64,000 bases of DNA from an uncultured delta proteobacterium (GCA_963737265.1 CAVTRY010000013.1:96001-160000), one strand, 5' to 3'. Positions 15,417 to 27,942 are shown, counted from the stretch's first letter. The notes: generated by a model not told the origin, from the sequence alone. Made by a program: numbers and translations.

Positions 15417-17117
15417 CTACGTTTGGGCTGTCGGCCGAAGCTGGGTCGCTGTCGTCCACGCCGCCGAAAGAAGGATCACGGCAGCGCAAGCGATGACGTT
15501 GTACCAAAGGAAGCTGACGCTCGTGCGCAGGAAGATGGCAAGGACGACGGCCTCCGAAAGGATGGCTGCCACGAACACCGCGGTTCCCCGCACCCGGCGC
15601 AGGAAAAACGCCACCAGAAAAATTCCCAGTACGGTGCCGTAGAAGAGCGAGCCGAGGATGTTCACGGCCTGGATCAGGTTATCGAGCAGCGAGGCGAAGG
15701 TGGCGAAGGATACGGCCAGCACCCCCCAGACGGCGGTGAAGACCTTCGCGGCGCGGACGTAGTGGGCGTCGGGCGCATCCTTGCGCAAGCTACGCTTGTA
15801 AATGTCGACCACGGTGGTCGATGCGAGCGCGGTCAGCTCGCCGGCCACGGCCGACATAGCGGCGCAGAAGATGACCGCCAGCAGCAGCCCCACCACTCCG
15901 CGCGGTAGGTTGCGCATCACGAAGGACAAGAATACGTAGTCGGCATCCTTGGTCTTGGCGCCGGGCAGCGCGCGGGCGATGACTTGCTTGGCTGTCCGGC
16001 GAATGTCGGCCGAAGTAGCCTCGGCCGCTCGCACGTTCTGTTCGGCGCTGGCGATGGCGGCACTGTCATGCTGGTCGAGGGCTTGGTCGAGGCGCCAGAT
16101 TTCGGCGCGTTTGTGCTCGAAAGCGGCAACGTGGGCCTGTTCGAGCACGTGCAGCTGGCCAGCACTCGGCGTGTTGTGCGCGCGCGAAAGCTCGGACTGG
16201 TTGAAGAAGACCGGCGGCGGATTGAATTGATAGAACATGAAGACCATCACGCCCACAAACAGAATGAGGAACTGCATCGGAATCTTGAGCAGACCGTTGA
16301 ACAGCAACCCGAGGCGACTGGCCGTGATCGAGCGGGCGGCGAGGTAGCGCTGGACCTGGGACTGGTCGGTGCCGAAATAGGCCATAGCCAGGAAGAATCC
16401 GCCGAGCAAGCCAGACCACAAGGTGTAGCGCGCGCTGGGATTGACGGAGAAATCCACCAAGCTCATCTTTCCCAGCGTCCCTGCAATGTGGACGACGTTG
16501 CGAAACGAAATGTCGGGCGGCAAACGCATGACGATGACCACGAATGCGACCACCATCCCGCCCAGCATCACGACCATCTGGTGTTTTTGCGTCTGACTGA
16601 CGGCGCGCGTGCCGCCCGCCACGGTGTACAGAATGACCACCCCGCCCATGGCAAGGCAGGTCAGGTTCAGCGACCAGCCCAGCACCGACGACAGAATAAT
16701 GGCCGGTGCATAGATCGTAATACCCGCGGAAAGACCGCGCTGGAGCAAGAACAGCAACGCCGTCAATTGGCGTGTTTTCAAGTCGAAGCGGCCTTCGAGA
16801 AATTCGTAGGCGGTGTAGACGCGCAACTGGAAATAGCGAGGCACGAATAGAATCGACAGCGCTACCATGGCGAGCGGCAGGCCGAAGTAAATCTGAATGA
16901 AGCGCATCCCGTCGTCGTAGGCCTGGCCGGGCGTGGACAGAAAGGTGACCGCACTGGCCTGGGTGGCCATGACCGACAAGCCGATGGTGTGCCACTTGTC
17001 CTGGTAGCCGCCGCGCAAGTACCCGGCCATGTCCTGCCGGCCGCGTGTTTTCCACAGGCCGTAGCCGACGATAGCGCCGAGCGTCACGAACAGAACCAGC
17101 CAGTCGAGCACGCTCAT
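15417..17117 (-). CDS. Sodium:solute symporter (SSS family)
   Basis: SVMATQASAVTFLSTPGQAY, YTAYEFLEGRF, YFGTDQSQVQRYL, about 13 TM segments; ATGA coupling to the upstream small ORF. Confidence 0.93.
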   Translation of the reverse strand: MSVLDWLVLFVTLGAIVGYGLWKTRGRQDMAGYLRGGYQDKWHTIGLSVMATQASAVTFLSTPGQAYDDGMRFIQIYFGLPLAMVALSILFVPRYFQLRVYTAYEFLEGRFDLKTRQLTALLFLLQRGLSAGITIYAPAIILSSVLGWSLNLTCLAMGGVVILYTVAGGTRAVSQTQKHQMVVMLGGMVVAFVVIVMRLPPDISFRNVVHIAGTLGKMSLVDFSVNPSARYTLWSGLLGGFFLAMAYFGTDQSQVQRYLAARSITASRLGLLFNGLLKIPMQFLILFVGVMVFMFYQFNPPPVFFNQSELSRAHNTPSAGQLHVLEQAHVAAFEHKRAEIWRLDQALDQHDSAAIASAEQNVRAAEATSADIRRTAKQVIARALPGAKTKDADYVFLSFVMRNLPRGVVGLLLAVIFCAAMSAVAGELTALASTTVVDIYKRSLRKDAPDAHYVRAAKVFTAVWGVLAVSFATFASLLDNLIQAVNILGSLFYGTVLGIFLVAFFLRRVRGTAVFVAAILSEAVVLAIFLRTSVSFLWYNVIACAAVILLSAAWTTATQLRPTAQT

Positions 17118-17251
17118 CGGGAAATCAACGTAACAGCTGTGAAGACGGCGATTTCTGCCGCCAGCGCGGCGACGACGACAATGTAGAGGATCCTCCAACT
17201 CCAGAACGGCGCTGTCGCGTGCAGCTCGCGCCGCTCGGGTTCATCGGGCAT
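17114..17251 (-). CDS. 45-aa single-TM protein coupled to the SSS gene (not in the ORF track)
   Basis: MPDEPERRELHATAPFWSWRILYIVVVAALAAEIAVFTAVTLISR*; TGA overlaps the SSS ATG; TAGAAT lies 8 nt upstream of the start. Confidence 0.8.
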   Translation of the reverse strand: MPDEPERRELHATAPFWSWRILYIVVVAALAAEIAVFTAVTLISR

Positions 17252-17353
17252 GAATTCCCATTCTACCGGCGACGAAATCGGCGATGTCTGGAGATGAGAC
17301 GCGAGACATGCGAGAAGTTGAGCACACGGGAGTCGTCCGGTCGAGAGGGGCCG

Positions 17354-25316: not shown

Positions 25317-26815
25317 TGGTTTCGTCGGCGTTGCTGGAAGTCCTGGCCGAACAGCAAGAACGCCTTCCCGCCAGCACCGCGCGCCAGGCAAATTGGCAGG
25401 CACTGGCCGGTGGCGGCGCCGCGGTGGTCGCGACCGGCCAGCAGGTGGGGCTCTTTTTGGGGCCGCTCTACGCCTTTTACAAAGCAGCCTCGGCCATCGC
25501 GGTGGCGCGCGCGATCGAGGCCGAGTCGGGCGTCCGCTGCGTTCCGCTCTTCTGGTTGCAAACCGAAGACCACGACTTTACCGAGATAGCGAGTTGCACG
25601 GTGGCCGGCCGCGACGGCGAGCCGGTGCGTTTGGCCTTGCCCGACGAACCGGACGGGCAAGGTCGTGTTTCGGTCGCCTATCGCGTCCTCGGACCCGAGG
25701 TCGCGGAGGCCCTGGGCGCGCTGGCCCGGGCGCTCGACCCCGGTCTCGCGGGCGACGAGGTCTTGCAGCTCTTGCGTGCCTGCTATCAGCCGGGGAAGTC
25801 GCTGGCCGGTGCGTTTGCCTCGGCCCTCGCAACCGTGTTCGCCGACGAGGGCCTGCTCATCCTCGATCCGCGCGACGCGCGCCTGGCCGCGCTGGCCACG
25901 CCCATCTATCGATCCGCACTTGAGGATTCCGAGGCCATCGAACGACGCCTCAAGGAGCGACGGGATGCGCTGGCCATGGCGGGGTTCGACGAGCAAGTGG
26001 CGGTGCGCGAACGAGGCGCGCTGGTGTTCTTCCACCGCGACAGTCCGACCGGCCCGCGCTTTCGCCTTCAGCGCCGGCAAGCGGCGTCAGACTGGGAGCT
26101 GGCGGGCAGCTCGGAAATCATCAGCCACGACGATTTGCTGGCGACGCTGGCGTGCGAGCCGTTGCGCTTCTCCACCTCGGCGCTGCTGCGGCCGATGGTT
26201 CAGGATACCCTGCTGCCCACCGTGGCCTACGTGGGCGGACCGGGCGAAATCAACTACTTTGCCCAGCTTGGGCCGCTCTACCAGCACTTCGGCTTGGCGC
26301 CGCCGCTGCTCGTGCCGCGCGCCCGTTTCCGTTTCATCGACGCGCGCACGCGACGCAGGCTTGGACTGCTCGGGTTGCGGGCGGCCGATCTGTCCGCGCC
26401 CGCCATCGAGGCCCGACTAACCGTCGCGCGTCCGCCCGGCTGTCCCGATCCGGTGGAGCTTCGAGCCCTGGTGGCGAGCCAGATCGCACCTGCCGTGGCG
26501 ACGATAACCAGCGCCGTTGCAGCCGACGAGCACCTTCGCCGCCCGGCCCTGCGCGCGCGCGAAAGCGTTGCCTACCGCCTGGAACGATTGATCGATCGCT
26601 ATGCGCGCACGCTGGTAGAGCGCGACGACAACACCAACCGACGTCTGCATCGTGCGAAGCTCGCGCTCTGTCCAAACGGAGTGCCCCAGGAGCGCTTTTA
26701 TGCTTGGCCATCCTTGGCTGGCCGGCTTGGCGTCGCGCGCTTCAAGCAATTGGTTGGGCAAGCGTTGCAGACCGCCGGGCCATTCTCGACCGACATCCAC
26801 GAGCTCCAAGCATGA
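25196..26815 (+). CDS. bshC: Bacillithiol biosynthesis cysteine-adding enzyme
   Basis: VVATGQQVGLFLGPLYAFYKA, PLFWLQTEDHDFTEI, FSTSALLRPMVQDTLLPTVAYVGGPGEINYFAQL, PQER. Confidence 0.93.
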   Translation: MGRAFSNSYLAGEDAARAFFAPGFRDGEVRVAAARRASGRLVSSALLEVLAEQQERLPASTARQANWQALAGGGAAVVATGQQVGLFLGPLYAFYKAASAIAVARAIEAESGVRCVPLFWLQTEDHDFTEIASCTVAGRDGEPVRLALPDEPDGQGRVSVAYRVLGPEVAEALGALARALDPGLAGDEVLQLLRACYQPGKSLAGAFASALATVFADEGLLILDPRDARLAALATPIYRSALEDSEAIERRLKERRDALAMAGFDEQVAVRERGALVFFHRDSPTGPRFRLQRRQAASDWELAGSSEIISHDDLLATLACEPLRFSTSALLRPMVQDTLLPTVAYVGGPGEINYFAQLGPLYQHFGLAPPLLVPRARFRFIDARTRRRLGLLGLRAADLSAPAIEARLTVARPPGCPDPVELRALVASQIAPAVATITSAVAADEHLRRPALRARESVAYRLERLIDRYARTLVERDDNTNRRLHRAKLALCPNGVPQERFYAWPSLAGRLGVARFKQLVGQALQTAGPFSTDIHELQA

Positions 26816-27942
26816 CGCCATCTCGCTCCAGTCTGCGCATCGGCGTCGCGTGTTTTTCCACCTTCGGCGGCAGCGGCGTCATCGCCTCCGAGATCGGCAT
26901 GGCGCTGGGGCGGCGTGGTCACCGCGTGTGCTTTCTCAGCGACAAGCCCCCGGCGCGCTTTGATCTTTCGGCCGCGAATGCTTCCTTTCACGAGGTGGCG
27001 CTGCTCGATTACCCTGTGCTAGCCCATCAGTCCTATGCGCTCGCGCTTACCGCCAAGATGATCGAGGTGGCACGGGCCGAGAAGCTCGATCTCTTTCATC
27101 TCCACTATGCCGTCCCCCACGCGGTCAGCGCGTTTCTGGCCCGGCAAGTGTTGGGCGCCGGTGCGCCGAAGGTCCTGACCACCCTGCACGGAACCGACGT
27201 CACCCAGGTGGGCGCGGATGCACGCTTCCAGCCCCTTACCCAATTCACCGTGCGCATGAGCGACGGCATCACCGCGCCCTCGCGCTGGCTGGCCGAGGAG
27301 GCTTACCGCAACCTCGGCCTTGACGGCGACGTCGTCGAGGTGATCCCCAACTTCGTGGACACGGACAGATTCTGCCCGTCCGCTGCCGCGCCGAAGAATC
27401 CGGCGCTCCCTCGCGTGCTGACCCACACCTCGAACTTCCGGCCGCTCAAACGCCTGGAGGACGTGGTGCGAATTTTCGCCTCGGTGCGGACCCACACTCC
27501 GGCGCGCCTGCAATTGGTGGGTGACGGCCCGGAGCGGCCGCGCATCGAGGCGCTGGTTCATTCCCTCGGCCTGTCCGACTATGTGCGGTTCTTGGGCGAG
27601 CAGGTCAATCTCGTCGAGCTACTGCAAGGGAGCGACGTCTTCCTTTTGCCGAGCAGCACCGAGAGCTTCGGCCTGGCCGCCCTCGAAGCCATGGCCTGCG
27701 GCGTGCCCGTGGTCGCCTCCGACGTCGGCGGCGTATCCGAAGTCGTCAGCAACAGCGAGGTCGGCTTTCTGGCCGGGGTCGGCGACGTGGAGGTCATGGC
27801 CGGCCACGTGATTCGTCTCTTGACTGATGAATCCCTTCACCGTCGCATCTCCCAAGCCGCCCGCCGACGCGCCGAAAGCAAATTCCAATTGGAGCCCGCT
27901 GTCGATCGTTACGAGGCCGCCTTTCGGCGGCTGCTGGCATAG
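26812..27942 (+). CDS. bshA: N-acetyl-alpha-D-glucosaminyl L-malate synthase (GT4)
   Basis: [61 protein letters not shown] overlap with bshC. Confidence 0.95.

Follow-up and report, generated by a model that had tools for sequence, protein, structure and literature searches.

An export-like PIG-L hydrolase and a sodium:solute symporter linked to bacillithiol genes suggest a recycling or supply route outside the cell

Introduction

Bacillithiol (BSH) is thought to be the most widespread low-molecular-weight thiol of bacteria. Here we describe a locus in which two genes of its pathway, bshC and bshA, lie close to genes for a large hydrolase of the PIG-L/LmbE family, a small membrane peptide, and a sodium:solute symporter (SSS). 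The locus occupies positions 15,417 to 27,942 of a 64,000-nucleotide (nt) stretch of DNA from an uncultured delta proteobacterium (GCA_963737265.1 CAVTRY010000013.1:96001-160000), hereafter the window. A first, sequence-only reading of the window had proposed that the hydrolase acts outside the cytoplasm on BSH-related compounds, and that the symporter returns the product to BshC.

The closest described systems are the LmbE enzymes of thiol metabolism. BshB1 and BshB2/Bca of Bacillus (BC1534, 2ixd) both yield glucosaminyl-malate (GlcN-malate), according to a passage of a 2018 review (PMC5790435). The large PIG-L protein of the window shares with these enzymes the LmbE fold, the zinc motifs, and a genetic tie to bshA and bshC. 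However, BshB1 and BshB2/Bca are cytoplasmic, single-domain proteins of about 230 amino acids (aa), whereas the large PIG-L protein has about 870 aa, an export-like signal, additional domains that resemble immunoglobulin (Ig)-like barrels and STM3548, and a coupled symporter. A second comparison is with Mca and MshB, cytoplasmic enzymes of actinobacteria, of which Mca recycles the glucosaminyl-inositol core from conjugates. Mca is the best, albeit weak, NCBIfam match of the large PIG-L protein and MshB is among its top fold matches, yet the protein scores far under the Mca cut-off and mycothiol genes are absent here.

Precedents for the other parts of the locus come from different families. 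Gram-negative bacteria recycle glutathione with a periplasmic gamma-glutamyl transpeptidase and uptake of the products. The route considered here would follow a similar logic, in which a thiol or its conjugate outside the cytoplasm is hydrolyzed in the periplasm and a building block is re-imported, although the two systems share no homology. The solved proteins closest in sequence to the SSS are NIS, SiaT (5nv9), SMCT1, and SMVT (E 1e-36 to 4e-41), which rank ahead of glucose carriers; to our knowledge, none of them works with a 45-aa single-pass subunit. For BSH itself, a passage of the 2018 review describes it as unclear whether the thiol or its disulfide (BSSB) is imported or exported, and periplasmic export of the glutathione kind as not established (PMC5790435); the BSH pathway has been noted in some Myxococcota by a later survey (PMC12719100). 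Our searches of the literature on bacillithiol together with periplasm, import, LmbE, symporter, or Myxococc, and on DUF2911, returned no description of the module. The gene content and gene order reported below suggest a route for recycling or supplying bacillithiol outside the cell that is undescribed in the literature searched.

Results

Comparative genomics gives good support to a link between a putatively exported hydrolase-symporter module and the bacillithiol genes. Holders of the large PIG-L protein were identified with its C-terminal 582 residues, which are unique to it. Within the phylum of the window (251 genomes, its own included), all 25 holders of bshC also carry the large PIG-L gene, mostly on the same contig; conversely, 25 of the 26 PIG-L holders have bshC, the exception being a weak 29% match (G116). 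Among 151 genomes of Verrucomicrobiota, seven hold the large PIG-L gene and all seven encode a BshA above the cut-off on the same contig, 3.5-5 kb away, against a baseline of 8/151 genomes with such a BshA. Matches were found in 78 of 201 Bacteroidota genomes (about 55 of them full length), and while all 78 are bshC-positive, this is uninformative given a baseline of 193/201. Taken over the three samples, bshC or bshA accompanies the large PIG-L gene in 110 of its 111 holders. The sequence-only reading had proposed such profiling as a check, and the restriction to bsh carriers is indeed seen in the window's phylum (25/26) and in Verrucomicrobiota (7/7). Genomes within a phylum are kin, and counts of this kind overstate independence. 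The more independent evidence is that the module and the bsh genes occur in three gene orders in three phyla.

The genes in question lie on both strands of the window. The large PIG-L/LmbE hydrolase is encoded on the minus strand at 18853-21471; its longest open reading frame (ORF) spans 18853-21507 (884 aa), and the first ATG, at 21471, gives 872 aa, in agreement with the "roughly 870 aa" first estimated, with a GTG at 21450 as an alternative start. On the same strand are a hydrophobic, single-pass membrane peptide of 45 aa (17114-17251) and the 566-aa SSS (15417-17117, ATG at 17117; PF00474, 125.9 bits; TIGR00813, 232.4 bits against a cut-off of 184). The stop codon of the peptide overlaps the symporter's start (ATGA), so the coupling that had been described between the small ORF and the SSS on the PIG-L strand stands, but it had gone unnoticed that two response-regulator genes part the PIG-L gene from the small ORF. 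One is a LuxR/NarL-type regulator with Response_reg and GerE domains (17354-18016, minus strand). The other is a receiver-only gene (longest ORF about 18079-18723, minus strand; Response_reg, 69.8 bits, residues 99-208) whose real start is probably further inside that ORF. Both belong to a genome-specific insertion, around which we found no notable flanking repeats. On the plus strand, bshC (25196-26815; 539 aa, GTG start; TIGR03998, 395.2 bits against 265.8) is present in a single copy in the genome and is followed by bshA (26812-27942; 376 aa; TIGR03999, 448.5 bits against 273.7), whose ATG overlaps the bshC stop (ATGA). Both exceed the NCBIfam equivalog cut-offs, as their initial naming implied, and profile scans of the window reveal no short PIG-L gene, in keeping with the earlier remark that it holds no short bshB. 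A gene for a DUF2911 protein (30860-31837, minus strand; PF11138, 178.1 bits against a gathering score of 27) lies beyond the region first delimited. The G+C content (GC) of the region is about 0.63.

The ancestral gene order emerges from the relatives of the hydrolase. Scanning genome contigs for the PIG-L protein gave 296 matching stretches; relatives are encoded by 260 of these, and the best 80 were kept. The closest 21 loci come from metagenome-assembled genomes (MAGs) of Myxococcales/Polyangia, with identities of 52-72%; three of them have less than 200 nt of upstream flank and are uninformative about a head-to-head arrangement. In each of the 18 informative loci, the bshC-bshA pair stands directly head to head with the PIG-L gene, without the 3.6-kb insert of the window. 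The SSS gene follows the large PIG-L gene in 19 of the 21 loci, the remaining two of which end before that point, and the two response-regulator genes are absent from this site in all 21. In these relatives the small ORF begins at the PIG-L stop; homology with the window breaks at that stop and resumes at the start of the small ORF. A DUF2911 homologue is present in 13 Polyangia loci besides the locus L008. It adjoins bshA where positions are known and comes after the SSS in L014. A placement directly after the SSS in L008 was rejected, as that position is taken by a convergent ORF of 1451 aa and the DUF2911 gene is on the bshA side. In Verrucomicrobiota, the DUF2911 gene is just upstream of the large PIG-L gene. 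The DUF2911 protein is a fourth member of the module with the PIG-L protein, small peptide, and SSS. The ancestral arrangement is a "seven-gene locus" in which the DUF2911 gene converges on bshA, bshA follows bshC, and bshC diverges from the large PIG-L gene, with the small peptide and the SSS downstream. The window is a loosened copy of that locus, with three lineage-specific insertions, one per junction, and with none of its seven genes lost. The trio of PIG-L, small ORF, and SSS, which the sequence-only reading had placed in Bacteroidota, was found there in the locus comparison.

The large PIG-L protein has the hallmarks of an LmbE enzyme, with features of its own. It is a member of PF02585 (59.5 bits against a gathering cut-off of 28.2), and 24 sequences from three phyla share its AHPDDEN and HGHH motifs without variation (H38, D40, D41, E42; H154, H156, H157). 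An AlphaFold model (pLDDT 84.5, pTM 0.84) was searched with Foldseek. For the N-terminal domain, BC1534 (the BshB of Bacillus cereus) and MshB were the top matches (probability 1.00), and an archaeal diacetylchitobiose deacetylase was also matched. Three further domains follow; in the middle of the protein the fold is like that of Ig-like barrels, and at the C-terminus it is like that of STM3548. Equivalog scores were low: 33 bits against 182.5 for TIGR04001 (BshB1), 22.8 against 195.25 for TIGR04000 (BshB2), and 46 against 277.15 for Mca (TIGR03446), which is nevertheless the best, weak NCBIfam match in both phyla tested (46 bits here, 43 bits for the verrucomicrobial protein of L061). Separately, about 22 Bacteroidota genomes match only the last ~180 residues of the protein, where the STM3548-like domain lies. 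The matching open frames are 630-830 aa long and seem to represent a second family with the C-terminal domain in common.

An export-like pattern is seen in many of the homologues. The N-terminus of the window's protein consists of a basic stretch with an arginine pair (RR), a hydrophobic run that includes eight isoleucines, and A-N-A ahead of the conserved domain. Export patterns were judged by eye and by a hydrophobicity count (a 10-mer with a Kyte-Doolittle value of at least 2.0 just before the conserved domain). Such a 10-mer is present in 70 of 76 homologues with upstream sequence, and in 63 of those 70 an in-frame start also falls inside the 50-residue stretch that was inspected. The signal-peptide-like N-terminus that had been noted in the window is conserved among homologues of three phyla. 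The closest relatives retain the RR pair ahead of the hydrophobic stretch, which might mean export of the folded enzyme by twin-arginine translocation (Tat). In Bacteroidota homologues the hydrophobic stretch ends just before a Q, a pattern that fits the preference of the Bacteroidota signal peptidase for Q. The isoleucine run in the hydrophobic core of the signal is encoded by eight consecutive ATC codons (21371-21394), where relatives show an assortment of hydrophobic residues. Slippage could alter the length of such a trinucleotide run.

A hydrophobic ORF of about 39-60 aa is found just before the SSS gene in 69 of 72 loci from three phyla. Among 12 aligned rows, W19 and Y23 are invariant and 11 have an E or Q in mid-membrane. 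The predicted complex of peptide and SSS, run with author-supplied alignments, reached an ipSAE of 0.80 (best control, 0.00), with three runs agreeing in at least 95% of contacts and a partner pLDDT of at least 71. By way of benchmark, 58 of 80 solved complexes attain this ipSAE mark, as do 2 of 110 mismatched pairs. The modelling supports the view that the 45-aa peptide binds the symporter. A carboxylated cargo would fit the pattern of the symporter's nearest relatives, a fit that falls short of proof.

Whether the large PIG-L protein could serve as the pathway's BshB depends on which other PIG-L genes accompany it. Canonical BshB1 (270-298 bits) coexists with the large enzyme in 5 of 5 Bacteroidota or Ignavibacteria holders. 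Of the 25 genomes with bshC in the window's phylum, 17 have a short PIG-L gene directly 3' of it, and 115 of the 193 bshC-positive Bacteroidota do without the large enzyme. By these three patterns, the large PIG-L protein is mostly not BshB, and its role was ancestrally accessory. The window's own genome was searched for a separate bshB, as had been proposed. It holds one other PIG-L gene, whose product reaches 63 bits on BshB1 (cut-off 182.5). The gene is within the final 100 kb of contig C7, at a GC of 0.71-0.74 compared with 0.63 genome-wide. Two segments of this contig have such a GC, at about 350-385 kb and at 430-526 kb, and the second holds the PIG-L gene beside a GCS2-like gene. The high-GC segment with the second PIG-L gene is probably either a foreign island or a chimeric assembly, the latter of which would fit the contamination estimate for this genome (7.6%).

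The verrucomicrobial loci present another gene order. In 35 of them it is DUF2911-PIG-L-small ORF-SSS-X-BshA, where X is a conserved 255-aa protein encoded between the SSS and BshA genes (L061:14272-15039 and 34 other loci). X has no Pfam or NCBIfam match. A model of X (pLDDT 75) has BshC of Bacillus subtilis (4wbd) as its top match in the PDB (E 2e-8, TMq 0.60), followed by class I lysyl-tRNA synthetase. Sequence comparison of X with BshC gave nothing by BLASTP, and hhalign aligned the motif region at 8% probability. Canonical bshC is absent from all five verrucomicrobial genomes examined. In two verrucomicrobial genomes, other PIG-L genes reach at best 57.5 and 38.5 bits on the BshB models, and one of these genes adjoins a sugar-nucleotide gene. 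On the strength of the modelled fold, X may be a BshC of minimal size and may point to a thiol of the bacillithiol type in Verrucomicrobiota, a group that a passage of a 2018 survey lists (as Verrucomicrobia) among lineages without a documented or predicted thiol (PMC6282198).

The loosening of the locus can be traced between the PIG-L gene and bshC. The largest direct repeat within 20500-26500 pairs 21402-21561 with 25139-25298 (91% identity over 160 nt), and pairwise alignment sets the repeat as a block of about 170 nt at ~21412-21581 (copy A) and ~25149-25316 (copy B). Copy B comprises the opening 40 codons of bshC and the 47 nt ahead of them; all 18 sequences compared have in common the GTG start at 25196 and the N-terminal residues encoded after it. 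Copy A carries the PIG-L start region on its minus strand and, on its plus strand, a 59-codon remnant of the bshC 5' end (ORF 21459-21638). The PIG-L ATG at 21471 is inside copy A on the opposite strand, 13 nt past the remnant's GTG, so that the PIG-L 5' end overlaps a copy of the bshC 5' end just as the sequence-only reading had it. That reading also held that removal of the insert would place the PIG-L gene and bshCA on one divergent promoter. The head-to-head layout of all 18 informative relatives bears out the arrangement, but a shared promoter is still conjectural, as scans of repeat copies A and B for sigma-70-type promoters detected none. In close relatives, a 10-nt palindrome with TATACT is found about 14 nt upstream of the bshC start (window 21430-21445 and 25167-25182). 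TATACT is kept in copy B and reads TATTCT in copy A; the palindrome with TATACT is a candidate -10 box of bshC. A further element embedded in the shared start region and revealed by nucleotide constraint was considered and rejected, as third-codon-position conservation over the first 20 bshC codons (0.73-0.76) does not stand out from that in other conserved blocks (0.70-0.76).

In the closest relatives the divergent start codons of bshC and the PIG-L gene overlap by about 13 nt, which places the upstream region of each inside the other gene. On entry of 3.6 kb of unrelated DNA, the 170 nt covering both starts became duplicated, and each gene thereby retained a start region of its own. Where starts overlap, we would expect a duplication of this kind whenever DNA enters between two genes and neither is damaged. 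Two further insertions parted the PIG-L gene from the small ORF and bshA from the DUF2911 gene. The 3.6-kb insert (21582-25148) contains ORF609, a lipoprotein-like protein with a Gly/Ser-rich stretch (21687-23516, plus strand), ORF186 (24078-24638, minus strand), and a C-terminal remnant of an ORF609 paralogue (~24780-25037, plus strand). Neither Pfam nor NCBIfam gave a match above the cut-off for ORF609, ORF186, or ORF150, and no transposase or integrase family was matched among the three insert ORFs scanned. Partial paralogues of ORF609 are found just upstream of bshC (24780-25037) and twice on contig C11 (C11:546743, C11:691159), with one stop codon in each match. Recombination between copies of this type may have caused the rearrangement. 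In the one DNA run, contigs were 300-580 nt long at a depth of 0-5, and none was shown bridging an insert junction. The sole soil-metagenome contig at 21496-21518 (run X1) carries the copy-B letters at all five differences between the copies. Either it derives from copy B and was misassigned to copy A, or it stems from a strain that lacks the insert.

The third junction, between bshA and the DUF2911 gene, holds an expansin-like gene, an Nfu gene, and an Mrp/ApbC-type gene. The last two, at 28982-30878, are Nfu-type and Mrp/ApbC-type P-loop genes (iron-sulfur cluster carriers), neither of which is seen here in L008, the sole relative examined. Bacillithiol has been linked to iron-sulfur cluster assembly.

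Discussion

Our analysis points to a salvage route as the best reading of this locus, although we hold it tentatively and it may well prove wrong. The large PIG-L protein would be exported to the periplasm and act there as a zinc amidohydrolase on a bacillithiol-related compound with a GlcN-malate or N-acetylglucosaminyl-malate (GlcNAc-malate) moiety. As an amidase, it would cleave exported or environmental bacillithiol, its disulfide, or its S-conjugates; as a deacetylase, its substrate would be GlcNAc-malate. In either mode the product would be GlcN-malate, which the symporter and its 45-aa subunit would re-import and which BshC would re-load with cysteine. This reading is favored by the fold match of the hydrolase to BshB (BC1534) and MshB, by its invariant active-site motifs, and by the proximity of the SSS to carriers of carboxylated substrates, including a sialic-acid symporter. 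The salvage proposal of the sequence-only reading has gained the co-occurrence with bsh genes, the conserved export-like signal, and the ancestral layout, while substrate, product, cargo, and direction of flow continue to be inferred.

Several observations weigh against salvage or qualify the evidence for it. The large PIG-L protein scores far under the BshB1, BshB2, Mca, and MshB cut-offs, no bsh genes are found within 10 kb of the module in Bacteroidota, and, as described above, the Bacteroidota counts are uninformative and those of the other phyla come from kin. No equivalog of YpdA/Bdr or YtxJ was found in the window's own genome, and for this reason redox cycling of bacillithiol of the Bacillus type is not evident there. 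The distribution of BshB also counts against it. The large PIG-L protein is the only PF02585 match in five of the seven close relatives tested (G004, G005, G611, G614, G615) and in six of the 25 bshC holders of the phylum (G014, G039, G057, G099, G114, G179). Judged by gene content, a lineage with bshA and bshC in which canonical BshB is missing is a real pathway gap, and because of it salvage in its pure form leaves the deacetylation of GlcNAc-malate unexplained. That these close relatives have no other PIG-L gene had not been foreseen, and it opens a different reading, for which the gap is the chief argument: in lineages lacking BshB (the Polyangia group, genus g40, and soil Verrucomicrobiota), the exported PIG-L protein could be the pathway's only deacetylase. 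The GlcNAc-malate that BshA produces would exit the cytoplasm, lose its acetyl group on the outside, and re-enter through the SSS as GlcN-malate; in a variant, the enzyme would act in the cytoplasm before its export, and Tat export of a folded enzyme, which the RR pair of the closest relatives might mean, would suit this account. All eleven genomes in which the protein stands alone carry bshC or both bshC and bshA, the second PIG-L gene of the window's own genome is in a compositionally foreign segment and not BshB-like by score, and the verrucomicrobial operon joins BshA, a protein with a BshC-like predicted fold, and the large PIG-L protein, the other PIG-L genes of the two genomes looked at not being BshB-like by score. 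Nevertheless, most holders also carry a canonical or short BshB, which argues for an ancestral role other than BshB. It would also be costly to export an intermediate only to re-import it, and we know of no exporter for such a compound. The gap itself may have other causes, as incomplete MAGs could hide a short bshB (though all five genus g40 genomes lack one) and a deacetylase of another family is possible, the survey having covered PF02585. We therefore consider it unlikely that the large PIG-L protein is the sole deacetylase of these lineages. The corollary, that in the Polyangia group and soil Verrucomicrobiota bacillithiol or a similar thiol is made via an obligatory periplasmic step, with a symporter as part of biosynthesis, strikes us as rather unlikely.

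It is also conceivable that the module imports some other N-acetylated or amide-linked sugar acid, such as a chitin-, peptidoglycan-, or sialic-acid-like fragment, and that its link with bsh genes is indirect, through regulation or precursor supply. The fold of the hydrolase matches diacetylchitobiose deacetylases as well, the SSS resembles sialic-acid and vitamin carriers, the module of Bacteroidota is not beside bsh genes, and an expansin-like gene follows bshA in the window. In addition, a passage of a study of plant-biomass cultures places a DUF2911 protein of Sphingobacterium in the secretome (PMC4666044). Yet one would expect to meet a module for general nutrient uptake in numerous genomes that lack bsh genes, and this is at odds with the near-universal presence of bshC or bshA among the PIG-L holders of the three samples, as well as with the joining of module and bsh genes in one locus, in two orders, in two phyla of low baseline. 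We regard this explanation as quite improbable. The link could even be devoid of function, with the module and the bsh genes traveling together by shared descent of one ancestral locus. The holders in the window's phylum are mostly kin with adjacent genes, and a single inheritance could yield 25 of 25; however, shared descent does not readily account for three gene orders in three phyla, nor for the retention of all seven genes of the locus here despite three insertions that broke their adjacency. We give this explanation very little credence.

To the question of whether bacillithiol is imported or exported, the locus contributes concrete candidates: a LmbE hydrolase with an export-like signal, a dedicated symporter together with its putative small subunit, and a DUF2911 protein. 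The comparison further draws attention to bacteria in which BshA and BshC occur without BshB. Finally, it points to a likely operon of the bacillithiol type among soil Verrucomicrobiota, for which the 2018 survey, in the passage cited above, gives no documented or predicted thiol (PMC6282198). If the obligatory periplasmic step were to prove true, Verrucomicrobiota would gain a thiol pathway built around a minimal BshC of 255 aa.

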